DNA from: an uncultured Alphaproteobacteria bacterium
Lineage (GTDB): Bacteria > Pseudomonadota > Alphaproteobacteria > Rs-D84
Length of the DNA stretch: 64,000 bases
Direction of reading: 5' to 3'
Assembly (NCBI GenBank): GCA_947054455.1
Contig: CAMRWN010000002.1
Location: 19,976-83,975, forward strand
Shown here: one piece after another, positions 34,642-44,649 of the stretch
Numbering within the stretch: the stretch's first letter is position 1
How the letters are laid out: every line of letters begins with the position of its first letter
Program-made: the position numbers and the translations under genes
The notes under the pieces: model-generated
Seen by the model: the letters and a program-made list of their open reading frames with translations, nothing else
What the model was told of the DNA's origin: nothing
Databases searched by the model: none

Positions 34642-34757
34642 TAAAATTCATTGCATGTGCGGATAAAATCTTATCAGCATCATAAATGCCGCGCAACAAA
34701 AAAATACCCACGTGGCCGATGGCCGCGTGGCCATGTGAGATATAGAGGAATATAAAT

Positions 34758-35573
34758 ATGGTAAAATATGTGAATACTTATATGGGACTACAATTATCTG
34801 CATCAGAAAATAGTGTCGAATATATTTACAATGCTATTGTTGCTCCCCTTTTTGAATTTAAATTTGACATTCCCCGTCAAGATGTGCCGCTTTCTTTTGT
34901 TGGAAAGATAAGGGATGTGGGTATTGACAGCTTAGATTTTGTTGAATTTCAGATGGAGATCGATAAGGCGCTGTTTTCAGTAGGAGTCTATAGTAAAGTT
35001 ATGGCCGACAAGATTAATGATATGGCTGCAGAAGGCAAATTTAGTATGCGTCGTCTATGTGAAATAATTTGCGATGTTCGTGCAAACCCGGGAAATTATG
35101 GATTAACAGAATCTGATTTTCGCGTTCCCTATATTAATGCGTCTTATACGCCGACCCAGAATTTACAGCAAAAGCCCTTGCATGTTGCGGCCCCGGTTGT
35201 CCATGCGGCCGCTTCAAAAGTCCCGGTTGTTGCGCCATCTAAACCCGCTGCTGCCCTTGCCGGAAAAGTGGCCGGTCGCAGTGTTGCAGATATAGAAAAC
35301 GATATCAACATCACACACCAAGATATAAATATATTGCTGCAGAAATTAATAGTTTTGCAAAACGAATTGGTTGATGCCAGGGTTGCGCAGGCTGTTGCGG
35401 CGCACAGCGCGGCGGCCGCACCTGCACCTGTGGAAAAGACAATGGCCGCACCGGTAAAAAAGATATCCAAGGCCAAGGGTAAAGTTGTCGCAGATAATGC
35501 GGCGGCCGCACTGGAACAGGCAAAAACTGTATCCAAAGCACGCCTTGCTGCCAATAATGGCAAACAGCGCTAG
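34758..35573 (+). CDS. ACP-like domain protein with Ala/Lys-rich C-terminal region
   Basis: 271 aa. VGIDSLDFVEFQMEIDKAL matches the phosphopantetheine-attachment (DSL) motif of acyl carrier proteins. The C-terminal ~140 aa are low-complexity A/P/K/V with a coiled-coil-like stretch. Confidence 0.6.
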   Translation: MVKYVNTYMGLQLSASENSVEYIYNAIVAPLFEFKFDIPRQDVPLSFVGKIRDVGIDSLDFVEFQMEIDKALFSVGVYSKVMADKINDMAAEGKFSMRRLCEIICDVRANPGNYGLTESDFRVPYINASYTPTQNLQQKPLHVAAPVVHAAASKVPVVAPSKPAAALAGKVAGRSVADIENDINITHQDINILLQKLIVLQNELVDARVAQAVAAHSAAAAPAPVEKTMAAPVKKISKAKGKVVADNAAAALEQAKTVSKARLAANNGKQR

Positions 35574-35580
35574 ATTTATA

Positions 35581-35614
35581 CGGCATTTGAGAATTTGTCA
35601 AATGCCGTTTTTTA
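35581..35614 (+). terminator. Rho-independent terminator
   Basis: cggcatttga/tcaaatgccg 10-bp stem followed by a T-run. Confidence 0.7.
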
Positions 35615-35690: not shown

Positions 35691-35767
35691 GGATGAGTAG
35701 CTCAGTTGGTTAGAGCACCACGTTCACATCGTGGGGGTCGCTGGTTCGAGTCCAGTCTCATCCACCA
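35691..35767 (+). tRNA. tRNA-Val (anticodon CAC)
   Basis: ggatgagtagctcagttggttagagc.., anticodon loop ttCACat, encoded CCA. Followed by terminator 35777-35806. Confidence 0.9.
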
Positions 35768-35827
35768 GAATTAAAAAATCGTCCATTCGGACGATTTTTA
35801 TTTTTCATACCTATATACCGTGGTGTT

Positions 35828-36145
35828 TTAACGCAATCCCTTGGCACGGCAGCATGCGGCGGCCGCCGCCTTCCAGTCGGAATATTGTTTCGAAGGATTG
35901 CGCAGGTCTTTCCACGCCTGCCATCCGGCGCATTTCTTGTTGGTGCCCGTACCCGTGCATTTTGCATAGCGGCGCAGCGAGCATGTCTGATTTGAAACCT
36001 TACCTGTGTCGGTTGTGCATTTTACAACGACATTTTGGTTTTTGGCGTCGCCCTTGCCCAGTTCTTTGGACGACAAAACCTGGTATGCGTTCGCACCACC
36101 AATGCACATTGCAAAAACCAGTAATCCTGATAATAGTTTTTTCAT
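35828..36145 (-). CDS. Small secreted Cys-rich protein
   Basis: 105 aa with signal peptide MKKLLSGLLVFAMCIGGANA and 7 Cys in the mature part. Confidence 0.6.
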   Translation of the reverse strand: MKKLLSGLLVFAMCIGGANAYQVLSSKELGKGDAKNQNVVVKCTTDTGKVSNQTCSLRRYAKCTGTGTNKKCAGWQAWKDLRNPSKQYSDWKAAAAACCRAKGLR

Positions 36146-36219: not shown

Positions 36220-37791
36220 TTAACTGCGCGTCAGTGGGCGTTGCGGTTCTACATGACAACCGTTTTCGCGAAATAACTGGACTGAACGCATCCACCCTTT
36301 CAGAAATACCTTGTATTCAGGTTTTTTATCGGCCAGATTTACATAATATTGCTGCATGGTGTCCCAATATGCGTTATGCAAATCTTCTTGATAATTTTCC
36401 GCGGCGGCAATCAGTGTCTGGTCAACGGTGCCTGTTTCCGCCAGCCCCAGCGTTTTTTGCAGTTTTTTGACCCCATTGCCCGGACCCATGTTGAAATCAC
36501 CGCGCAGAACATCCCCGCGCACCGAATCCGGCAGACGGTCTATGTCGCGGGCGGTGTAAAATTTCGTGTATGTAAGGTCTTCTGCACCGGCGGGTGTCAA
36601 TTTTTTTACATCAATGTCGGGGTTATAGTTCTGTGCGAATCCATAGCATGTATATCCGCCACTGTCGGCCGGGTGGTCGCCGCATTCGCCTTCGACGCGG
36701 AATATTTGAATCATTGCTTTTTCAAATGCCGGATCCACGTTGGCATAGTCGCCGGTCGTCAAAATCTTGTTTGAAAACCAGTCGCTGGTTTCAGACGGCG
36801 TGCAGTTCCCGCCACGAGCCGTGTTGTCAAACGACTTTTTGGCTGTGGCGGCGACATCTGTTTTCTGGGTGGTGGGGGCGGCCTGTGTCCGTGTGGCAGG
36901 TTTTCTGTCGCCTATTGCAATAATTTGATTTTCCAATCCTTTGGATTGTGGGCAACGCTGCGCATCCAACGGATAGCGGTCGCAATATTGTTGCTGTGTC
37001 AATGTGGTGCTGTCTTCTGCCTGCCGGCTGCGCAGACGATTAATCTGCCTATCCAAATACTCTTCCTGTTTTTCTATATTGATAGTTTGGTAAACTTTTG
37101 CGTCTTTGAATGGTTCGTATCCCTGCGCCTTGTTCTGTGCGCGCTGTGTAAATGTATAGTCCGCCGCCGTTTCCGGAAAGTCCGCCAATGTAAGCGTCGG
37201 TTTTGACGCAGATGCATTTTCCATATCACGCAGCTGCTGCTGACGCGCTTTGATGTCGCGCTTCCAGTCTTCTTCCGCCGGCTGATACGGGTTTTGTATT
37301 TTAAACTGGGATCCACCCGCGTTTGTGTTCGGTGTTGTCGCATCAGGGAATGCCGCCCAGGCACTGGGGCCGGCGTTTGCATACTTGGATACAAAGGACG
37401 CGAATTCCGAATCGATAAATCCCGCACACGAAGATGCATAATTATGCCCCGGCATTCTGGACAGCTGGGTCATAATGGTCGGTCTGACATCCTTTAGATC
37501 CATCCCGATGCAGTTATTTTGAGCAGCGCAGAAGTTTGCGACCAATACAGATACCACCTGTATACAGTCGGCGGTGTTTAAATCCGCGCCCTGCAGATAA
37601 ACAGGCTGCGGCATTCTTTGGTTGTACGGACTGCCAGGATTCCAAAAGGGGTTCGATGAATAGTTCTGTACGTTTTGTATCTGACCATAATTAGATACTA
37701 CCCCGCCCTGGCCAACGGATGCCCCCCCGGCCCCACTGGACCAGGCCGCCATGACCGCAACAAAGATTATGCGCGCATTGTGTTTCATCAT
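36220..37791 (-). CDS. Secreted protein: unknown N-terminal module fused to a GH108-like muramidase plus PG_binding_3-like domain
   Basis: The C-terminus has VEGECGDHPADSGGYTCYG..LT..A..Y..GDFNMGPGNGVKKLQKTLG..TGTVDQTL, matching the GH108/PG_binding_3 pattern from memory. The ATG at 37791 overlaps the upstream stop (ATGA). Confidence 0.7.
   Translation of the reverse strand: MMKHNARIIFVAVMAAWSSGAGGASVGQGGVVSNYGQIQNVQNYSSNPFWNPGSPYNQRMPQPVYLQGADLNTADCIQVVSVLVANFCAAQNNCIGMDLKDVRPTIMTQLSRMPGHNYASSCAGFIDSEFASFVSKYANAGPSAWAAFPDATTPNTNAGGSQFKIQNPYQPAEEDWKRDIKARQQQLRDMENASASKPTLTLADFPETAADYTFTQRAQNKAQGYEPFKDAKVYQTINIEKQEEYLDRQINRLRSRQAEDSTTLTQQQYCDRYPLDAQRCPQSKGLENQIIAIGDRKPATRTQAAPTTQKTDVAATAKKSFDNTARGGNCTPSETSDWFSNKILTTGDYANVDPAFEKAMIQIFRVEGECGDHPADSGGYTCYGFAQNYNPDIDVKKLTPAGAEDLTYTKFYTARDIDRLPDSVRGDVLRGDFNMGPGNGVKKLQKTLGLAETGTVDQTLIAAAENYQEDLHNAYWDTMQQYYVNLADKKPEYKVFLKGWMRSVQLFRENGCHVEPQRPLTRS
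37061..37716. repeat. 656-bp direct repeat, copy 1 (inside the muramidase gene)
   Basis: Same sequence as 40640-41295 (offset 3579). ORF-track translations are identical in three frames. Confidence 0.85.
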
Positions 37792-39545
37792 TGCGCCCCC
37801 CGTCCCGTGGACCACGGCTCGTCATTCATTATCAGATAGTACAGTTCCGCGTTCGATGTCCCAGGCTCGCGGATAACGGGACGCACCACGTATATGTCCA
37901 CGTCGCACGGATATGAATTTTCCGCCGCCTGGGTTTCGGTCAGCATCATGTGGAATTTTGATGCGGTGTCCATTGCCTGCAGATACGCGGCATCGTCGTC
38001 GGCCGCACTGATTGTGTCGCCCTGCCACAGCAGCCACATTCCATAATTTACAACATTGTCCTGGCCGTCGGGCAAATCGTCCGCCGACAACAGCAGCAGC
38101 GGCTTGAATTCAATGCCGCTGGTGAATTCGCCCGTACTGGTTTCGGTATAGTCGTACATGTCGCCGGCAAATTTCAGCGCGCCGTACAACAGGCCGCCGG
38201 TCTGTTCCATACGGGCCAGTCGTGATATGTTGCGCATTGTCCAATGAAACAGCCGGTCCCGGATTTTACCGGATTTCATGCTGCTGCGTGCAATGCGGGC
38301 GCCGCGGTTCAGTGTTTTGCCACCGGTGTTTGCCGCCTTTATCGCGCGCAGGGACCGCGCCACGATATTGCCGCGCTGGGCCGCGTGTGCGGTGCGCATG
38401 CCGCGCAGCGCATGGCGGTATTCGTTTAGCTCGCGATATGTTTTTGACAGCTCGTTGTACTTTTTTATATCGTCTGTTTTCTCTAGCGTTCGCATTGCAC
38501 TGGCGGCGTTTTCCAATTCCTGCGATTTCTTTGTATATGTGGCCATATCCTTTGCTTTGTCGATTTTTTTCAGGTCTTTGGCAATGGTTTCATAGCGCTG
38601 GGTTGCACGGACATAATCACGCACGGAATCAAGACGGCTTAGCTCGCGCAGCGGGCCGGATATATTTTTCAAAGACCGCGCCGCGCGTGCGGATTTTGCC
38701 GTACCCATGACTGCGGTTCCGGCACCCATTGTCGCAACCGTTAATACAACGTCCAGCGCGATTTCAGTGTATGAAATCCAACGCAGGTCGGCGTCGCCCG
38801 CAACATAATAGTCGTTGGTGTCCCCTTCTATGTCCACGACCTGGTGCATTACACGGTTAATCATGTCGCTGTCGTTTGCAATGGCCGTTTTGCTGGTGCA
38901 TGTGAATCCCGACGGATACAGCGCGTCGATATTGTCTTCGATATATGCGGTGGAAATGGTGTTGTTTTTCCCCGGACCGACAAATTGCGACAGCGCGCCC
39001 GCCTGGGTTACCATTATCGCATACCATGCCGGGTCCGTGTTTGTCCATATGGATTGGTCATCCGGGCCACCGATGCGCGGACTGGGGGTGCCAGGCGCGG
39101 TTGGTTTATTCGCCAGCATCAAGCGCTGCTTTAGTATTTTGGGCTGCGTTTCATAATTTATTACAATCTGGCGGCCGGCCGGAAACGTGTATTCTATCGG
39201 CAGAAACTTTATGGATTCATCGTCGGCAACACCGGAAATTTCGGGACATGCCAGAACGTCGCGCAAAACGTCGCCGCGCGCAAACGTTTGGTATATCCAT
39301 TGTTGAACCTCGGTCTCGTGCGCGGATTCGTCGGGTCTGGTGTCTGTGGATTGGGCCAATGCGCGCGCAAACACGGCCGTTGCGCACTGCGTGTCGTCCG
39401 CATCGCGGTACAGCAGTTCATCCACCGATACAAAACCCGGCGTGTCAATAATCGGATCGGCAATCATGTCCAGCCCGGAATCCGCCGCCCCCACCGTCGG
39501 AATAGCCACAAACAATGATAGCAAAATGACGCATATATGCCGCAT
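37788..39545 (-). CDS. Secreted protein, unknown function
   Basis: 585 aa with signal peptide MRHICVILLSLFVAIPTVGAA and a central K/R-rich helical region. Confidence 0.65.
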   Translation of the reverse strand: MRHICVILLSLFVAIPTVGAADSGLDMIADPIIDTPGFVSVDELLYRDADDTQCATAVFARALAQSTDTRPDESAHETEVQQWIYQTFARGDVLRDVLACPEISGVADDESIKFLPIEYTFPAGRQIVINYETQPKILKQRLMLANKPTAPGTPSPRIGGPDDQSIWTNTDPAWYAIMVTQAGALSQFVGPGKNNTISTAYIEDNIDALYPSGFTCTSKTAIANDSDMINRVMHQVVDIEGDTNDYYVAGDADLRWISYTEIALDVVLTVATMGAGTAVMGTAKSARAARSLKNISGPLRELSRLDSVRDYVRATQRYETIAKDLKKIDKAKDMATYTKKSQELENAASAMRTLEKTDDIKKYNELSKTYRELNEYRHALRGMRTAHAAQRGNIVARSLRAIKAANTGGKTLNRGARIARSSMKSGKIRDRLFHWTMRNISRLARMEQTGGLLYGALKFAGDMYDYTETSTGEFTSGIEFKPLLLLSADDLPDGQDNVVNYGMWLLWQGDTISAADDDAAYLQAMDTASKFHMMLTETQAAENSYPCDVDIYVVRPVIREPGTSNAELYYLIMNDEPWSTGRGAQ

Positions 39546-39561
39546 GTCCCGTTTACAACCG

Positions 39562-40461
39562 TCAGTTTATATTATAAGGCCCCGCCATGATTTTTACCTG
39601 TTGAATGTCTTCAATTTGTGTCGGTATCATTGTGAGGAATCCCAGTGCGCCTGCGACTGCGTAGGAAAATGTCGCGACTTTGTCTTTATTTTCTGAATAC
39701 CAGCTGCGCGCCGATGCAGGCCCCAGTTCAACCAGGTACACGGCCAGCGATTGGTTTGCGCAATATGAATTTTGCAGTGCCTCGGCAAACTGTTCCGCCA
39801 CTTGCTTGCCGGTAATGAAATTTGTATATGATACGATATATTCATTAGAGGATCTGGTTTTGTCCATCAAAACCAAACCAGGAAACGCGCGGCGATTGTT
39901 TCCTTCTTCAAAATCCAGAAAAAATTCGTTGTCGCCGCCGCCGTATTGTGAAAACACACGCTGACCGGCGACATTTATGGCCGCATTGTTATTAAGGCCG
40001 TCCCATATTGCGTGATCAGAGCATTCGTTCGACCAATACAGTTTTGGAATATCCGATAATTTGATGACGTCAGGATAGCTTTTTGTGCGTTTGTTATATA
40101 CCATTATACCCAGTCGCATATCAAGGTATTCAAACATTTCAGGGATGGAAAAATTAAACGCATAGTTTTGTCCGTCGTGAACAAACAGCAGGTTGGCCCG
40201 TTGTGTTTCTGCTATCTCTGGCAGTTCGGCTTGGCAGCTTTGCAGTACGTTTTTTGCAATCAGCGCCAATATTTTGGATTTGTTTTTTTGGGCGATTTCT
40301 TCGTTCAGCTGGGTCGACGAATTAAATATTTCTGAATACAGCGTGTTCTCGACCGACTGCGAAATTTTTTCCATACATTCGTCCAGTGGGGTGCATGTGG
40401 CCGCGCGTGTGAAAATTGACAGGGCCATAACCAGCAAAGATGTTTTTTTTGCGATTTTCAT
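39562..40461 (-). CDS. Secreted protein/lipoprotein candidate, unknown function
   Basis: 299 aa with an N-terminal signal sequence (MKIAKKTSLLVMALSIFTRAATC). Lies 16 nt upstream of the next gene. Confidence 0.65.
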   Translation of the reverse strand: MKIAKKTSLLVMALSIFTRAATCTPLDECMEKISQSVENTLYSEIFNSSTQLNEEIAQKNKSKILALIAKNVLQSCQAELPEIAETQRANLLFVHDGQNYAFNFSIPEMFEYLDMRLGIMVYNKRTKSYPDVIKLSDIPKLYWSNECSDHAIWDGLNNNAAINVAGQRVFSQYGGGDNEFFLDFEEGNNRRAFPGLVLMDKTRSSNEYIVSYTNFITGKQVAEQFAEALQNSYCANQSLAVYLVELGPASARSWYSENKDKVATFSYAVAGALGFLTMIPTQIEDIQQVKIMAGPYNIN

Positions 40462-40473
40462 TCCCCACTCCGT

Positions 40474-41415
40474 TTATAATGTTATTATGATTGTATCTGC
40501 GGGCAGTTCCGTTGTCGTATCTGTGTCCGTTTTCGTTGGATTGGTCGCGTCGTATTTTCCTTCTTTCTTTTGGACGCTCTTTTTTGTATTCCCCACCGAC
40601 GTGCTTTTTCTTTCCCTGTCATCGCGACGTGCGTCGTAGTCTTCCTGTTTTTCTATATTGATAGTTTGGTAAACTTTTGCGTCTTTGAATGGTTCGTATC
40701 CCTGCGCCTTGTTCTGTGCGCGCTGTGTAAATGTATAGTCCGCCGCCGTTTCCGGAAAGTCCGCCAATGTAAGCGTCGGTTTTGACGCAGATGCATTTTC
40801 CATATCACGCAGCTGCTGCTGACGCGCTTTGATGTCGCGCTTCCAGTCTTCTTCCGCCGGCTGATACGGGTTTTGTATTTTAAACTGGGATCCACCCGCG
40901 TTTGTGTTCGGTGTTGTCGCATCAGGGAATGCCGCCCAGGCACTGGGGCCGGCGTTTGCATACTTGGATACAAAGGACGCGAATTCCGAATCGATAAATC
41001 CCGCACACGAAGATGCATAATTATGCCCCGGCATTCTGGACAGCTGGGTCATAATGGTCGGTCTGACATCCTTTAGATCCATCCCGATGCAGTTATTTTG
41101 AGCAGCGCAGAAGTTTGCGACCAATACAGATACCACCTGTATACAGTCGGCGGTGTTTAAATCCGCGCCCTGCAGATAAACAGGCTGCGGCATTCTTTGG
41201 TTGTACGGACTGCCAGGATTCCAAAAGGGGTTCGATGAATAGTTCTGTACGTTTTGTATCTGACCATAATTAGATACTACCCCGCCCTGGCCAACACTGG
41301 CGGAATATGCAGCATCGGGCGCCTGCGCCAATAAAAAAATTCCAGCGAAAATAAAGCGAATTTTCACCCTCTGCTTCCCTTTGTTATATAGATTATAACA
41401 AAAAGGACATTGCAA
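40474..41415 (-). CDS. Secreted protein sharing the N-terminal module of the muramidase gene, with a K/T/D-rich tail
   Basis: Residues SVGQGGVV..INIEKQE are identical to the 36220-37791 product. The start is uncertain; a GTG at 41367 would give signal peptide VKIRFIFAGIFLLAQA. Confidence 0.65.
   Translation of the reverse strand: MQCPFCYNLYNKGKQRVKIRFIFAGIFLLAQAPDAAYSASVGQGGVVSNYGQIQNVQNYSSNPFWNPGSPYNQRMPQPVYLQGADLNTADCIQVVSVLVANFCAAQNNCIGMDLKDVRPTIMTQLSRMPGHNYASSCAGFIDSEFASFVSKYANAGPSAWAAFPDATTPNTNAGGSQFKIQNPYQPAEEDWKRDIKARQQQLRDMENASASKPTLTLADFPETAADYTFTQRAQNKAQGYEPFKDAKVYQTINIEKQEDYDARRDDRERKSTSVGNTKKSVQKKEGKYDATNPTKTDTDTTTELPADTIIITL
40640..41295. repeat. 656-bp direct repeat, copy 2
   Basis: Same sequence as 37061-37716. 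Confidence 0.85.
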
Positions 41416-41866
41416 GCAAAGTCAAAAGTGCGCCACCCAGAAAGAACGGTGCGAACGGTATGAAATTCTGTTTTTTGACCCGCGCCCATATCGCACCTGA
41501 TATGCACGCCATGACCAGTGCCGCCGCCAGACCCGTCGGCCCCATCCATACGCCGCCCACCCCCAGCAGCTTTATGTCGCCCATGCCGATTGGTGTCGGT
41601 GCGTTCGGATTTTTACGCCGCATTGAATAGTCGAATGCAAATCCAGTTATCGCGCCAATGGCATACCCGAACGCTGCGCCAATCGCCGCACCGCGCGCGT
41701 CGCACACCCAGTTCGGAACGAATGCCGCCGCCAGCATTCCCGCCAGCATCAGCGGAAACAAATATGCGTCTGGAATTATGCGGCGTCGAAAATCAGCGAC
41801 GGAAATACGCCACGCACACCACAATGACCCCGCCAACAGAGCAATAAAAAAGATGTAATCAATCAT
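41393..41866 (-). CDS. A24-family prepilin peptidase (CpaA-like)
   Basis: 157-aa polytopic protein with the two Asp motifs (SVADFRRRIIPD and GMGDIKLL). Confidence 0.75.
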   Translation of the reverse strand: MIDYIFFIALLAGSLWCAWRISVADFRRRIIPDAYLFPLMLAGMLAAAFVPNWVCDARGAAIGAAFGYAIGAITGFAFDYSMRRKNPNAPTPIGMGDIKLLGVGGVWMGPTGLAAALVMACISGAIWARVKKQNFIPFAPFFLGGALLTLLAMSFLL

Positions 41867-41942
41867 ATTTTTCTCCCTTGCCTTTCGAATCGGAACTATG
41901 ATACACTTATAGCATCATAAAGTGTAATAAGGATTTTGTAAA

Positions 41943-42542
41943 ATGAGCAAGGGTTGGGACAACGCCACACTGAAAAAACTGAAGGCTCTGACGGGCAAGG
42001 GATTATCAACATCTGAAATTGGAAAGCGTCTTGGGATGTCCAAGAACGCTGTGGTAGGCAAATTAAACCGGCTGGGCTGGAATCTAAAGGCCGGCGGTGG
42101 TGCGGCCGCCGCGGAAAAGCCGGCGGCGCCGGCCAAAAAGGCCAAGACGACCGCTGTTAAAAAGGCGCCGGTTGCGGAAAAAGCAAAAGCCGCGGTGAAA
42201 AAGCCTGCCGCTGAGAAAAGCGTGCCAGCCAAAAAGGCGCCGGCCGCCAAGACGGTCGCAAAAAAGAAGGCCGAGACACCCAAAGCCGCGGCGCCGGCCG
42301 CGCCCAAGGCGGCAGCAACGCGGGGGGGCAAATCCCTGAACAAGAGTCTGGCGATGCATCAGCGTATAATCCAGCACTCTTTGGAGATGGCCAATCTGAA
42401 GCCTAATCAGTGCCGCTGGCCGATTGGCGACCCGGATTCGGAAAATTTCCATTTCTGCGGCGATACCGTTTTCGTCGGCAAGCCGTATTGTTATGAACAC
42501 TGCAAACAGGCATATCAGTTCGCGCCGCCGAAAAAGAAATAA
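41943..42542 (+). CDS. gcrA: Cell-cycle regulator GcrA
   Basis: MSKGWDNATLKKLKALTGKGLSTSEIGKRLGMSKNAVVGKLNRLGW N-terminus, and C-terminal CRWPIGDP..FCG..PYC. Confidence 0.88.
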   Translation: MSKGWDNATLKKLKALTGKGLSTSEIGKRLGMSKNAVVGKLNRLGWNLKAGGGAAAAEKPAAPAKKAKTTAVKKAPVAEKAKAAVKKPAAEKSVPAKKAPAAKTVAKKKAETPKAAAPAAPKAAATRGGKSLNKSLAMHQRIIQHSLEMANLKPNQCRWPIGDPDSENFHFCGDTVFVGKPYCYEHCKQAYQFAPPKKK

Positions 42543-42567
42543 GACCGGTGCGCGGGGGGATAAAACA

Positions 42568-44649
42568 ATGACACAGAGAGAGAATGATTTGTCGGTACTG
42601 ACGGCGGCGGAATATGACATCGCCGGCAATAAAATACGCGCATATTATGATGCACGTCGTAAATTGGTTTTCGTCATTGATGAAACAATCAGCGATATAA
42701 AGCCAAACGTGTTGCTGGTTATTAATTCCGTTGGCGACCGCAAGTGGGATGACGTGCTGGCGAACGACTATGGCATTGATTTGGAGACGGTGCGCCCCAA
42801 AAAAGACAACAAATATCAAAAGCTGGATATCGAATACGATGGTCTGGATGTTTATGCAGACTTGATTGGTGCATTTGATGCGGGCGCGTCCATGACGGAT
42901 GTGTTGCGCCGTCTGGACGTGTTTCGCGACACGTCGTCGCGCCGCGCCGCAACCGAAAGATTTTCCGCGGCTGAAATCACCGCCGCCAATGCGCGTGATA
43001 CGATTTCAAAGACAAACGAAACAATTGGCGAACTGCAGACGCGTCTGCGCCAACTGCGTTCCAAACTTGGCGCGCAGAAAAAGGAAATCGGCCGCGAACC
43101 CACCAAGCAGTCCGCGTCAAAAATCCTGCGAACCGAAGCGCACATTGATACGACAAATGAAAAGCTGGCACGGGCAAAAAAACGTCTGGCCAGTGCGCAA
43201 AAGCGCCTGGTCGCCGCCGAAGAGGATGCAGAAATCGCACGTGAAATTTTGGCGCGCGCGCCGTTGCAGTCATCTGCTGCTGCGCAGCCCATGGCGGCCC
43301 TGCCCGCGGCACCTGCATTTAGGGAAATAACTTTTGCGGGCCCATCGTCCGATGATTTGCCGGCGGTTGTTCCAAACGATATTGATGTCGGCATCCCCGC
43401 GGACGCAAATAATAATTCAACAACACAAACCGAAGAAACAAAGGCGGAAATTATGGCCGATGAAGAAGTAAAACCATTATTTGACAAAGACCCGGAAATT
43501 TTGGACGAAGAAATTGCGTTCAAACCGATTGATTTCGGCAATATACCGGCGCCTGCCCCGCGTCAGCCACTGCAGGAAACCGCAATGGATATCAGTTCCG
43601 ATACGATTGCGCCGGCCCCGTTGTCTTTTGTGCCACCGGTTCAGGAATATGATGCCGTCAATGAATCCGCGCCGCGTGATGCGTCGCCGGTTCTGGATGC
43701 CATTACATCAGTTAATGTTCCGTCAGAATCCGAAACGATAATCACCGAACGCATTATCCCCCAGCCCGTGGTTGAGCCGCAACCCGAACCGGTCAGCAAT
43801 CCTGCGCCTGCGCCGATGAAAGACATTGTGCCGGCGCCCGCGCATTCTGAAATGCGCCCTGTTTCGCCGATTGCCGGACGTGCCGGGGATTCGAACGGCG
43901 GCGCGCAGAAAAAGCCGGCGTTGCTGTATTATATAATGTTGATAGCGTTGATTTTGATGTCCATCTTTACACTGTGGATTTATCAGAAATCAACAGGCGA
44001 CACGGTTCCGGAATTGTCCGCACCGACGGCAGTTGCCGATTTGACGCAGACCGCCCCGACCGCGCCCCGCGACGTCGATGCAAATCCTTTTATCATTACG
44101 GAAACAGTTTCTGAAGCATCTGCGCCCGTACCGACTGATGATGCCGAACCCGTTGCGGAACCGGTTGTTGAACAAGTTGTTCCGATTGCCCCTGTCCAGG
44201 ATACGGCGCCCGTCGCGGATGTGCCTGTCGATATCCCACAGCCGCAGCCCATGATGCCGGCGCCGGTTGATATCCCCGAACCTGCCGAGGTTGTACCGCA
44301 ACCGATACCGGTGGTCGAAGCACAGCCTGAACCTGTTATCCAGCCGGTGCCGGTATCGACGCCCCAACCTGTGTCGCAGCCGGAAAAAACGATTCCCACC
44401 GAAGAGGAAATTATCGCCAGCAAGCCCGGCTATAACGTGTCGCAGCAAGAAAAGATGTTTGTTGCCGACAACGGGTATGAAACGGATGTGAAATATGTTG
44501 ATGATACTTTGGTTGAAAACAATGTGGAAACATGTTCGGACGGCAAGGCGCCCGATATGTACGGATGTTGTTCCGGCGAAGAATATACCGACATCGGGGA
44601 CGGATATGCCTGTTGCGCAGGTGATGAATGTTTCCCGCCGTTGTTTTGA
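42568..44649 (+). CDS. Bitopic membrane protein: coiled-coil N-terminus, TM, Pro-rich region, Cys-rich C-terminus
   Basis: Start set at ATG 42568 (GGGGGGA SD). TM is ALLYYIMLIALILMSIFTLWIY. The C-terminus is CSDGKAPDMYGCCSGEEYTDIGDGYACCAGDEC. Confidence 0.65.
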   Translation: MTQRENDLSVLTAAEYDIAGNKIRAYYDARRKLVFVIDETISDIKPNVLLVINSVGDRKWDDVLANDYGIDLETVRPKKDNKYQKLDIEYDGLDVYADLIGAFDAGASMTDVLRRLDVFRDTSSRRAATERFSAAEITAANARDTISKTNETIGELQTRLRQLRSKLGAQKKEIGREPTKQSASKILRTEAHIDTTNEKLARAKKRLASAQKRLVAAEEDAEIAREILARAPLQSSAAAQPMAALPAAPAFREITFAGPSSDDLPAVVPNDIDVGIPADANNNSTTQTEETKAEIMADEEVKPLFDKDPEILDEEIAFKPIDFGNIPAPAPRQPLQETAMDISSDTIAPAPLSFVPPVQEYDAVNESAPRDASPVLDAITSVNVPSESETIITERIIPQPVVEPQPEPVSNPAPAPMKDIVPAPAHSEMRPVSPIAGRAGDSNGGAQKKPALLYYIMLIALILMSIFTLWIYQKSTGDTVPELSAPTAVADLTQTAPTAPRDVDANPFIITETVSEASAPVPTDDAEPVAEPVVEQVVPIAPVQDTAPVADVPVDIPQPQPMMPAPVDIPEPAEVVPQPIPVVEAQPEPVIQPVPVSTPQPVSQPEKTIPTEEEIIASKPGYNVSQQEKMFVADNGYETDVKYVDDTLVENNVETCSDGKAPDMYGCCSGEEYTDIGDGYACCAGDECFPPLF

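Follow-up and report, generated by a model that had tools for sequence, protein, structure and literature searches.

Introduction

Type IVb pilus operons contain a cell-wall hydrolase together with several system-specific proteins, the gene order in R64 being pilS-pilT-pilU-pilV. SagA of Brucella abortus and the TtsA-type enzyme of Salmonella are specialised autolysins, composed of a GH108 and a peptidoglycan-binding domain, which open the wall for a secretion process, and in SagA the catalytic residues are Glu17, Asp26 and Thr31 (PMC8334348). Here we analysed a window of 64,000 nucleotides (the whole stretch of DNA under study) in which a prepilin peptidase and a GH108 muramidase are encoded side by side with exported proteins. 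The host belongs to Candidatus Enterousia, in the order Rs-D84, gut Alphaproteobacteria with genomes of ~0.9 Mb. Members of Enterousia and related groups occur widely in the guts of humans and animals; they are uncultured, and most of their metabolism has been lost. The sequence of the locus suggests an undescribed cell-envelope module.

Organization and conservation of the operon

Six co-directional genes on the minus strand, named g1 to g6, encode an A24 prepilin peptidase (g1), the proteins g2, g3 and g4, a muramidase (g5) and the protein g6. The original prediction comprised five genes, and each of these ORFs was found on that strand at the coordinates it had given, with the junctions it had described; the total is nevertheless six, g6 being added downstream of g5. 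Between g1 and g2 there is a 25-nt gap if translation of g2 starts at a GTG codon, or a 23-nt overlap if it starts at a TTG, the spacings between g2 and g3 and between g3 and g4 are 12 and 16 nt, g4 and g5 overlap by an ATGA, and g6 follows g5 after 74 nt. Shine-Dalgarno sequences precede every start. A promoter-like site, TTTACA-17-TATGAT (41914..41942, minus strand), recognised by a 10/12 consensus match only, is located in the 76-nt spacer that separates g1 from the divergently oriented gcrA, and the sole terminator-like hairpin of the unit, with T-runs at both sides (35774..35799), is found 3' of g6, between this gene and a tRNA-Val. Given the tiny or overlapping junctions, the Shine-Dalgarno sequences, the one promoter-like site and the one terminator, g1 to g6 is a single predicted operon.

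In 80 Enterousia loci the arrangement is gcrA, divergent from the A24 gene, followed by g2, one gene in a hypervariable slot, g4, a GH108 gene in 17 of the 80, and g6; this order is kept in 18 + 80 species-level loci and in the sister genus L112. The genes, on whose co-occurrence the original prediction had been made to depend, form a tight unit conserved in Candidatus Enterousia and sister genera, with the slot variable and the muramidase as an optional member. The flanking genes gcrA, g9, acpS and g8 are syntenic too, and since they are equally so, synteny within the family is weak evidence of function.

Exported proteins and the hypervariable slot

The gene g2 (40474..41367, minus strand) encodes a Sec-exported protein of 297 aa, or of 313 aa when the longest ORF (40474-41415) is read from the TTG at 41415. 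Translation more likely begins at the GTG (position 41367), because this codon results in a standard signal peptide and the 297-aa form is present in a public collection. The protein displays a conserved YGQIQNVQNYSSNPFWNP motif, a small three-helix domain with four cysteines, an FPxT...IExEE motif and a charged tail, and its AF2 model is confident only at residues ~88-152. The signal is of the Sec type, no prepilin leader being present, and neither a match in Pfam, NCBIfam, PHROG or PDB nor a similar fold was obtained.

In this genome the slot is occupied by g3 (39562..40461, minus strand), which combines a Sec signal and a globular part with a C-terminal helix that is hydrophobic and rich in Gly (261-280) and a tail of the form ...IEDIQQV.I..GPYNI. 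Genes of this type fill the slot in only 13 loci and unrelated families do so elsewhere, at least four unrelated families being found across Enterousia. The alternative that g3 is a lipoprotein, raised in the original prediction, was ruled out, as the cysteine beside the signal peptide is not conserved among relatives. No family match was found for g3 in Pfam, NCBIfam or PDB, a Pfam scan of the g3-type slot proteins returned no matches and no toxin domain, and no relationship between g3 and g4 was detected. In 12 of the 80 loci g2 and the slot gene are fused in frame, and the partners of the g2 N-terminal module include GH108 (in this species), g3-type proteins, g4 paralogues and other slot proteins.

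The product of g4 (37788..39545, minus strand) is a conserved exported protein of 585 aa. Its Sec signal is followed by an N-terminal globular part (~40-250) and by one strongly hydrophobic internal helix of the Gly-zipper type (261-281); a long stretch of helices then leads to a C-terminal beta/alpha part (~480-580). Its AF2 model has a mean pLDDT of 74.5, and a fold search against PDB and BFVD gave no match; the AF2 models being only partly confident counts against our main reading. The family has just 141 members among 1.84 billion representatives, and is present in 23 of the 24 other genomes of the genus that were searched and in two of the three sister genera of the same family, while none of 16 genomes from the other families of the order has it. 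A secretin, of similar size, was considered and rejected for g4, which has no match to PF00263, the true secretin being encoded on contig C4. Two species have g4 and GH108 joined in one ORF (982 and 986 aa), and further cases are P0013 and P0175; were the hydrophobic helix of g4 to span the membrane, the C-terminus of g4, together with a GH108 fused to it, would lie in the cytoplasm.

The last gene, g6 (35828..36145, minus strand), encodes a secreted basic protein of 105 aa with six cysteines and is the most conserved of the unit, with a mean column identity of 82%. By sequence, the protein matched no family, the lysozyme inhibitors of Pfam included, and no solved structure. Four families (g2, g3-type, g4 and g6) are therefore without known relatives, and for g2 and g4 there is no matching fold either, in line with the earlier view of the unknowns as exported proteins outside all known families.

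One explanation for such a set is that these proteins act at the cell surface or after secretion in interactions with other cells, be it the host or prey of a dependent bacterium or its competitors, the slot being engaged in an arms race, the muramidase attacking and g6 possibly being an inhibitor. The diversity of the slot, whose occupants are sometimes fused to the constant g2 module, recalls polymorphic effectors, the muramidase is not always present and moves from partner to partner, and g6 is a small periplasmic protein encoded directly after it. In addition, the absence of respiration, of the TCA cycle and of standard transporters in Enterousia points to a reliance on other organisms (PMC12306168). 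However, none of the domains known from toxins, adhesins or delivery systems was found, the scan of the g3-type proteins included, and no gene varies with the slot in the manner of an immunity gene, g4 and g6 being constant downstream of it. Moreover, the 61 loci without GH108 also contain g6, which is just as conserved there, its sequence matches no inhibitor, and a Sec signal alone reaches only the cell's own periplasm. We consider this explanation unlikely, albeit deserving of attention, and the antibacterial function proposed as a possibility in the original prediction lost ground for the same lack of a toxin domain, a co-varying immunity gene or a delivery system.

The prepilin peptidase and a type IVb pilus encoded elsewhere

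The peptidase g1 (41393..41866, minus strand) is short (157 aa), CpaA/TadV-like and matches PF01478 (E = 2.4e-13; 50.9 bits, cut-off 26.5); it has several hydrophobic helices and lacks a methyltransferase domain. Residues D33 (IIPD) and D97 (GMGD), which we take to be the catalytic aspartates of the A24 family, are at least 97% conserved among 61 orthologues, and the CpaA-like identity assigned beforehand is well founded in these residues and in the PF01478 match. It is the only prepilin peptidase copy in the genome, and a single copy is found in 31 of 31 genomes of the genus.

Pilin, secretin and ATPase genes had been reported as missing, which is correct for the locus, and this is indeed not a standard Tad, T2SS or T4P locus, but pilus genes are found elsewhere in the genome. 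In fact, an R64-like type IVb pilus gene set is dispersed over at least four loci, with a cluster of PilO (PF06864), T2SSE ATPase and T2SSF platform genes at C1:280-285 kb, a lipoprotein secretin on C4, three minor-pilin-like ORFs (~400-470 aa) and two prepilins, MRSEYG↓RSLIE and MRQESG↓RSMIE, which match the N_methyl motif below threshold (E = 0.0015-0.0033, 17-18 bits, cut-off 21.2). A genome search with the class III leader pattern G/A-x4-E/Y, which would catch Flp-type leaders as well, returned only these two type IV prepilins plus three larger candidates. No class III leader was found in the operon, the candidate prepilin substrates being encoded outside it, and g2, g3 and g4, proposed earlier as proteins to be searched for prepilin-type cleavage, carry Sec signals and no G↓xxxxE. 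Because of the dispersed pilus, g1 is not an orphan and the idea of a peptidase in need of a new kind of substrate was abandoned; its partner system resembles type IVb (PilO) more closely than Tad.

The proteins g2 to g6 could, then, be lineage-specific accessory parts of this type IVb pilus, with roles in the basal body, the tip or alignment, and the muramidase akin to PilT of R64 or to BfpH. They are predicted to share a transcript with the only prepilin peptidase, missing parts could sit anywhere given that the other pilus genes are dispersed, a wall hydrolase and system-specific proteins are as expected of type IVb operons, and the peptidase gene of the other Rs-D84 families likewise precedes genes for two to four exported proteins. 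HMM comparison of the latter with g2 and g4, however, revealed no similarity, and in Pfam, NCBIfam and PDB neither Pil/Bfp/Tcp homology nor a class III leader was found for g2, g3, g4 or g6. The block does not co-occur with the pilus across lineages either: the PilO marker is present in all six families of the order and g4 in family f1 only, hence the pilus does not need g2 to g6. The link between the peptidase and the unknown proteins is weaker than it looks, the adjacency of the A24 gene and gcrA being ancestral to the whole order and the g2-g6 block restricted to one family. In the sister genus L113 this block is inverted and converges on the A24 gene, so that there it is not co-transcribed with it. 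Accessory pilus parts are, in our estimate, slightly more doubtful than the surface factors discussed above.

A muramidase that captured the g2 module

The gene g5 (36220..37791, minus strand) probably starts at the ATG at 37791, giving a chimeric secreted muramidase of 523 aa whose exact form is present in a public collection; residues are numbered here on the 531 aa of the ORF 36220-37815. Reading from the N-terminus, its own signal peptide precedes the g2 N-module, a Cys/Pro-Thr linker, a GH108 catalytic domain (36484..36708, minus strand; PF05838, E = 1.6e-9, 38.6 bits, cut-off 21.2) and a PG_binding_3 domain (36286..36474, minus strand; PF09374, E = 3.4e-6, 27.6 bits, cut-off 24.6), the fusion being as the original prediction had it. 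The protein matches the PHROG 315 endolysin (E = 6.8e-28), and the best solved-structure matches of its C-terminal 192 aa are Brucella SagA (7DNP, E = 7.7e-9) and 6V3Z (E = 1.7e-4). Glu375, Asp384 and Thr389 align with the catalytic Glu, Asp and Thr of SagA, and all 17 muramidase sequences aligned have their own signal peptide. Since both features are kept, the muramidase is probably active and periplasmic. Secretion of the holin/muramidase kind (type 10), in which a holin adjoins a signal-less muramidase, was rejected for the unit, in which the muramidase has a Sec signal and no small multi-TM ORF is found.

The muramidase is not a constant part of the unit: 61 of the 80 species-level loci have no GH108 in the operon and one more has only a remnant; these genomes carry further GH108 paralogues outside the operon. 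A ~40-aa motif, FPxT...GYxP(F/Y)...IExEE, is common to g2 and the free muramidases in all species. In the present species the similarity extends to a 656-bp repeat, 100% identical and with only two copies in the genome, located in g2 (40640..41295, minus strand; residues 41-259 in the 313-aa numbering) and in g5 (37061..37716, minus strand; residues 34-252). The 3' end of the g5 copy coincides with the end of the motif (37063-37179), and the chimera of the g2 N-module and GH108 is found in this species only, relatives carrying just the motif. Within a strain, both copies share strain-distinguishing substitutions in the last ~60 nt of the repeat, and they appear to evolve in concert.

It could be argued that there is no functional unit at all, that the genes are neighbours through the synteny of a young family and that the chimera is a neutral by-product of recombination at a short common motif. 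Flanking genes are as syntenic, the neighbourhood of the A24 gene and gcrA is older than the block, and the chimera occurs in one species; yet start and stop codons overlap or lie close together, the reading frame is open in both copies of the repeat, whose 3' ends co-evolve across strains 2-4% apart, and recurrent in-frame fusions (g2 to the slot protein, g4 to GH108, the g2 N-module to GH108) are hard to explain without a shared function, which makes this account improbable. Mis-assembly, suspected because a perfect repeat longer than a short read lies in a metagenome-assembled genome, deserves practically no credence: Logan contigs from at least four other, unrelated samples, 96-98% identical to the window, cross the three unique/repeat junctions, of four, that were checked (repeat to GH108, repeat to g2 tail, and g4/g5 signal peptide to repeat) and stop inside the repeat as a true repeat predicts, and 55-aa N-terminal g5 fragments ending at the repeat are found on at least 66 contigs. 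The repeat is not an assembly artefact.

Discussion

The reading that we prefer, and to which we assign about an even chance, is that g2, the slot protein, g4 and g6, with an optional muramidase, constitute a lineage-specific extracytoplasmic module beside an ordinary pilus peptidase. As the sole prepilin peptidase, g1 would process the ordinary prepilins of the scattered R64-like pilus, and the five other products, exported by Sec, would include g2, one interchangeable slot protein, g4 and g6 as one module. A SagA/TtsA-type muramidase, when attached, may open the peptidoglycan locally at the site of the module; this attachment would be achieved through the ~40-aa motif common with g2 in most species, through fusion to the C-terminus of g4 in some, and in this species by carrying the whole mature g2 N-terminal module. 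The third form may have arisen when 656 bp were duplicated or transferred by gene conversion, with the common motif as anchor, and ongoing conversion would keep the copies alike. Where the operon has no GH108, in 61 of 80 loci, the module must work without a muramidase. The sequences themselves establish which genes are present, how conserved they are, the fusions, the repeat, the preserved catalytic residues and the pilus genes at other sites of the genome. We infer both a physical complex of the products and an action of the muramidase on the cell's own wall, as well as the purpose of the module. The original prediction thus survives in part: the unit, the export and the fusion were upheld, a new kind of peptidase substrate and the antibacterial role were not supported, and the muramidase turned out to be optional.

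A bolder hypothesis, which we regard as more speculative than either the surface-factor or the pilus-part explanation, is that a novel wall-crossing surface structure of a dependent bacterium with a tiny genome is made up of g2, the slot protein, g4 and g6. In this structure the slot would set partner specificity, the tethered muramidase would cut the cell's own wall for assembly or that of a contacted cell, and the pilus, matured by the peptidase of this operon, would join the cells. If the preferred module is an envelope-spanning or cell-contact device of this kind, it bears on how gut bacteria with reduced genomes attach to or feed on partners; if not, it is a clear example of specialised autolysins recruited to new partners by domain capture. 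The operon is among the most conserved lineage-specific features of Enterousia and its relatives, and its fusions provide what may be a concrete wiring diagram, with the g2 module, g4 and the muramidase acting together. In the present genome this wiring is apparently changing in real time, with a duplication kept uniform by gene conversion.

Comparison with known systems

As in polymorphic exported proteins, a constant N-terminal module, that of g2, is joined to exchangeable C-terminal modules, but here the variable part is usually a separate gene, and neither a recognised toxin/immunity pair nor a delivery domain accompanies it. The peptidase resembles CpaA/TadV (MEROPS A24, PF01478) in its short length, hydrophobic helices, two conserved aspartates and absence of a methyltransferase domain, and differs in a partner system that looks type IVb instead of Tad. 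With the R64 thin pilus (pilL-pilV), whose gene set includes the PilU peptidase and the PilT lytic transglycosylase, the genome shares PilO, the ATPase, the platform, the lipoprotein secretin, prepilins and the A24 peptidase, and a wall hydrolase is likewise encoded in the operon of the peptidase. In contrast to R64, the pilus genes are scattered, the hydrolase is a GH108 muramidase and not a lytic transglycosylase such as PilT, g2, g3, g4 and g6 have no Pil counterparts or prepilin leaders, and the pilus marker is found in Rs-D84 families without g2 to g6.

By sequence g5 is closest to SagA of B. abortus (7DNP) and to the TtsA type of Salmonella (6V3Z). The role in secretion is that of those enzymes, and near g5 there is no holin, T4SS or toxin islet. 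It has the same two-domain layout, the same Glu/Asp/Thr residues and a similar chromosomal, non-phage setting beside envelope genes; unlike them, it possesses its own Sec signal and a long N-terminal extension, and belongs to a type of muramidase that is optional within the genus and tethered to orphan proteins by fusion or by motif.

Organization of the operon

In the window, ORF calling revealed six ORFs arranged head to tail from 41866 down to 35828 on the minus strand: the A24 prepilin peptidase (g1, 41393-41866, 157 aa; PF01478, 50.9 bits, E = 2.4e-13), the orphan exported proteins g2 (40474-41415), g3 (39562-40461) and g4 (37788-39545), the muramidase g5, which starts at the ATG at 37791, and a cysteine-rich secreted protein, g6 (35828-36145, 105 aa), located 74 nt after g5 and preceded by a good Shine-Dalgarno sequence. 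The original prediction of a tight five-gene unit stands except that it left out g6, and the 12-nt gap, the 16-nt gap and the ATGA overlap between the g4 stop and the g5 start were all found on the minus strand; in operon order the first junction is a 25-nt gap (or a 23-nt overlap), the next two are gaps of 12 and 16 nt, g4 and g5 overlap by 4 nt, and 74 nt separate g5 from g6. For the first of these, either a 23-nt overlap or a GTG restart had been proposed, and the GTG at 41367 is most likely the start of g2, since it yields a signal peptide (MKIRFIFAGIFLLAQAPDAAYSA), has a Shine-Dalgarno sequence ahead and matches the 297-aa form present in a public protein collection; g2 is exported, as predicted, but its length is more likely 297 than 313 aa. 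The collection form of g5 is the 523-aa protein. The 76-nt spacer between g1 and the divergent gcrA contains a promoter-like site (41942-41914, minus strand), and the sole terminator-like hairpin along the operon path (35774-35799) is found 3' of g6.

The surroundings of the operon vary among strains. A related strain (L122, approximately 97.5% identical) harbors beside tRNA-Val an island of about 8 kb (L122:1586-9500) with tyrosine integrase, HTH, Toprim and AAA_25 genes, which is absent from the window, where the matching site is at about 35723-35729 (tRNA-Val, 35691-35767). In strains L123, L124 and L126 a stretch of about 900 bp (34708-35614) is replaced by approximately 88 nt, and thus the ACP-like Ala/Pro/Lys-rich gene that it contains (34758-35573) is strain-variable.

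The muramidase and its duplicated N-terminal module

The description of the last gene as a modular GH108-like muramidase with a peptidoglycan-binding domain is confirmed by matches of the g5 C-terminus to both GH108 (PF05838, E = 1.6e-9) and PG_binding_3 (PF09374, E = 3.4e-6). The protein also matches the endolysin family PHROG 315 (E = 6.8e-28), and its closest solved structure by sequence is SagA of Brucella abortus (7DNP, E = 7.7e-9), the other best solved-structure matches being NMB1012 of Neisseria and the TtsA-like Sen1395 (6V3Z). The catalytic residues of SagA are Glu17, Asp26 and Thr31 (PMC8334348), and Glu375, Asp384 and Thr389 of g5 align with them. Judged from its sequence, g5 is an active-looking, Sec-exported muramidase of the SagA/TtsA type; a prophage endolysin is rejected because of the signal peptide and of the conserved chromosomal operon without adjacent phage genes. 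A second GH108-domain gene is found elsewhere in the genome (contig C1, C1:49795-50052, a 403-aa open frame), and about half of the Rs-D84 genomes carry GH108 genes outside the A24 operon.

The proposed fusion of the g2 N-terminal module to GH108 proved to be a perfect repeat: 656 bp of g5 (37061-37716) are 100% identical to g2 (40640-41295), and no third copy is found in the genome. The repeat comprises the entire mature N-terminal module, starting immediately downstream of the respective signal peptide and ending at ...INIEKQE, the N-terminal part of g5 being a DNA-level copy of g2. Its reality was assessed in independent assemblies (Logan contigs), with the repeat/GH108, repeat/g2 tail and g5 signal peptide/repeat junctions covered. 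Contigs from four samples (SRR34281141, SRR27143788, SRR15067456 and SRR22526876), approximately 97.5% identical to the window, begin 45-66 nt within the repeat, cross the repeat/GH108 junction and extend through g5 past g6. Two of these samples also yielded contigs of about 3.0 kb that begin in the g2-side repeat, span everything from the g2 tail to g4 and stop 32-44 nt into the g5-side repeat; the same g5-side repeat end is reached, across g4, by two shorter contigs, of which one comes from a fifth sample (SRR29547584). In addition, g5 occurs on more than 66 contigs as an N-terminal fragment of 55 aa that breaks off at the repeat. Breaks inside the repeat together with crossed junctions are the pattern of a true repeat, and we conclude that the repeat is real.

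Over the last approximately 60 nt of the repeat, both copies in SRR34281141 carry AATGT and AACCTC where both window copies carry AAAGT and AAAAAC, and the two SRR34281141 copies are distinguished from one another by just two bases close to the end. In this one strain and over this short stretch the copies appear to evolve in concert, and consequently the duplication would predate the split of these strains; they also appear to be homogenized by gene conversion. In an alignment of g5 with free muramidases from 16 other species, each of the latter has a signal peptide of its own and, immediately behind it, a motif of approximately 40 aa, FPxTxxDxxFxxRxxNxxxGYxP(F/Y)...SAYxxxxIExEE, and none shows the initial approximately 180 residues of the g2 module. 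The identical motif (FPxT...IExEE) is found in g2 at residues 220-258; in g5 it ends at 37063, and the 656-bp repeat has its 3' end at 37061. The simplest reading of the chimera is an ectopic conversion from g2 to g5, which would start in the ancient shared motif and extend 5' up to the signal-peptide boundary. Since the 16 other species lack the start of the g2 module and the repeat ends at the shared motif, the alignment indicates that the g2-N::GH108 chimera is particular to this species and rests on a genus-wide link between g2 and the muramidase.

Conservation of the operon and fusions between its members

Candidatus Enterousia comprises uncultured gut bacteria of the alphaproteobacterial order Rs-D84, with genomes of approximately 0.75-1.0 Mb, devoid of a TCA cycle, a respiratory chain and standard transporters (PMC12306168). 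A search for g4 found it in 23 of 24 further genomes of the genus and in none of 16 genomes that represent other families of the order. A synteny survey of 18 genomes and 80 loci from the genome collection displayed a constant order, g9<-gcrA <-> A24-g2-[slot]-g4-[GH108]-g6, in which the slot is a hypervariable position occupied by g3 in the window. Co-occurrence of the five families, proposed as a check, holds in this order for A24, g2 and g4, but not for the g3-type slot gene or for GH108, which lies between g4 and g6 in only 17 of the 80 loci, plus one further remnant; where it is absent, the g4-g6 gap is only about 60-300 nt. Relatives show signs of decay: in one species GH108 is reduced to 84 nt between g4 and g6 (L069:7898-7981), in another it is split (L091:7814-8923), and an internal stop in g4 is found at loci L051 and L077.

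The slot always holds one gene, encoding 300-575 aa, of unrelated families: g3-type (13 loci), g4 paralogues (8 loci), a family of approximately 500 aa with ...CDWNEDDIDMY... (12 loci), a large NWNDPGV...CWNW.C family, and further others. Fusions between members of the operon point to joint action of its products, g2 being joined in frame to the slot gene at 12 of the 80 loci, with g3-type genes, g4 paralogues and others as partners. Two species encode a single uninterrupted g4::GH108+PG_binding_3 ORF (982 and 986 aa), and comparable g4::GH108 proteins occur in collections (P0013, 803 aa, PF05838; P0175, 987 aa), the muramidase being joined to either constant partner, g2 in the chimera found here or g4. 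Since a peptidoglycan hydrolase must be periplasmic, the g4::GH108 fusions argue for a putative extracytoplasmic C-terminus of g4, despite a strong internal hydrophobic helix (261-281).

The orphan exported proteins

Scans of g2, g3, g4 and g6 against Pfam, NCBIfam and PHROGs gave no credible match, and no PDB sequence was matched below E = 0.07 by the profiles of g2, g4 or g6. The AF2 models of g4 and g2 (pLDDT of 74.5 and 66.5, respectively) found no Foldseek match at E <= 0.001 in the PDB, nor did g4 in BFVD, and TM-scores were at most 0.17. Among 1.84 billion representative proteins the g4 profile had 141 matches, apparently family members or slot paralogues, and hhalign detected no relation between g3 and g4.

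The g2 model is confident only at residues 88-152, a three-helix unit with four invariant cysteines, the rest being modelled as extended, including a highly conserved YGQIQNVQNYSSNPFWNP..SPYNQRMP stretch. In g4 the confident parts are a globular N-terminal one (about 40-250) and a beta/alpha C-terminal one (about 480-580), with a long helical region between them. The most conserved member is g6, in which columns are on average 82% identical and six cysteines are invariant. Among g3, g4 and the slot proteins of L058, L069, L084 and L102, Gly-zipper-like hydrophobic helices recur in g4 (261-281) and in g3-type slot proteins (261-280 in g3), and several slot families end, as does g4, in a similar C...(I/L)xVYxV...beta-strand element; these recurrent elements may represent a shared anchoring or assembly feature.

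Several candidate identities were rejected. A secretin is excluded for g4, which has no PF00263 match, the real secretin being encoded elsewhere in the genome. The lipoprotein alternative offered for g3 fails because the candidate cysteine is not conserved, and g6 is unlikely to be a spanin or a lysozyme inhibitor, as it has no lipobox and no family match and occurs without GH108. Prepilin-type cleavage motifs had been suggested as a feature to look for in the unknown proteins; no G|xxxxE motif was found in g2-g4, nor in g5, and ordinary Sec signal peptides are found instead.

The peptidase and the dispersed pilus

The A24 peptidase is single-copy in all 31 genus genomes (31/31), and conservation of its two aspartates, D33 and D97, is 97% or higher. 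The reported lack of pilin, secretin and ATPase genes holds within the operon but not for the genome, which has prepilins, a PF00263 secretin and a T2SSE ATPase elsewhere. On contig C1, PilO (PF06864, the family of the R64 thin pilus) is clustered with a small PilM-like lipoprotein, a PilP-like coiled-coil protein, a T2SSE ATPase and a T2SSF platform protein. Contig C4 encodes a 542-aa lipoprotein secretin (PF00263) downstream of a 307-aa exported protein. Two pilins of approximately 150 aa have the leaders MRSEYG|RSLIE and MRQESG|RSMIE, with N_methyl matches below the family cut-off, and three adjacent ORFs of approximately 400-470 aa with class III-like N-termini are minor-pilin-like. The pilus genes occupy at least five loci outside the window (C1:280291-284925, C1:168939-172850, C1:174876-175331, C4:30432-33014 and C4:46920-47384). 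By gene content, the genome encodes a dispersed type IVb-like (R64-like) pilus; the A24 peptidase is thus no orphan, and an ordinary pilus-maturation role is available to it.

Discussion

We hypothesize that g2, the slot protein, g4 and g6 would form one extracytoplasmic module, to which the muramidase would be brought in order to open the wall locally, and that in this species the muramidase would have taken over the complete g2 targeting module. Based on gene order and on the fusions, which join the muramidase to g2 or g4 in three alternative ways, we consider the chances of this module about even. The operon proteins might instead be cell-cell interaction or attack factors, which seems unlikely; no recognizable toxin-immunity system was found in the operon. 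Still less likely, the g2-g6 proteins could be pilus accessory proteins encoded behind the peptidase: the PilO marker is found in all six families of the order and g4 in one only, which points to a pilus independent of g2-g6.

It is improbable that the genes are mere neighbors, brought together without a common role. The divergent adjacency of A24 and gcrA-g9 (window 41867-44649; L112-L121), g9 being a large bitopic protein, occurs in four of the six Rs-D84 families and thus predates the g2-g6 block. Of three sister genera, the first (L112) has an operon of identical layout, in the second (L113) the g2-X-g4-g6 block is inverted and convergent on A24, and in the third (L114) the region is rearranged. 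In two other families (f2 and f3) A24 precedes 2-4 genes for exported proteins of about 380-520 aa, and g2 and g4 HMMs displayed no similarity to the exported proteins encoded downstream of A24 in other Rs-D84 families; such arrays (L119:3594-8899, L120:1-2857 and L121:9413-14683) carry a basic low-complexity stretch after each signal peptide. Co-transcription with A24 may reflect shared regulation of envelope functions, not a shared mechanism. Mis-assembly is extremely improbable, as Logan contigs cross the three repeat junctions covered and break within the repeat.

The peptidase and the muramidase belong to known families by all sequence-level membership tests, and no description of the operon was found in the literature searched, the Enterousia papers dealing with metabolism only. 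The original view that this is not a standard Tad/T2SS/T4P locus is sustained, a Tad, T2SS or R64 pil operon being rejected on gene content. Unlike the type 10 secretion cassette, which has a holin, the g5 operon has none and its muramidase carries its own Sec signal peptide, and this cassette is likewise rejected. Specific to the window are the g2-N::GH108 chimera and the evidence that it is real, apparently older than the split of the strains and kept uniform by conversion. SagA opens the wall locally for the Brucella T4SS (PMC8334348), and TtsA opens it for toxin export (PMC6996933); here, likewise, a specialized autolysin would be recruited to an envelope module, the other parts of which are orphan families.
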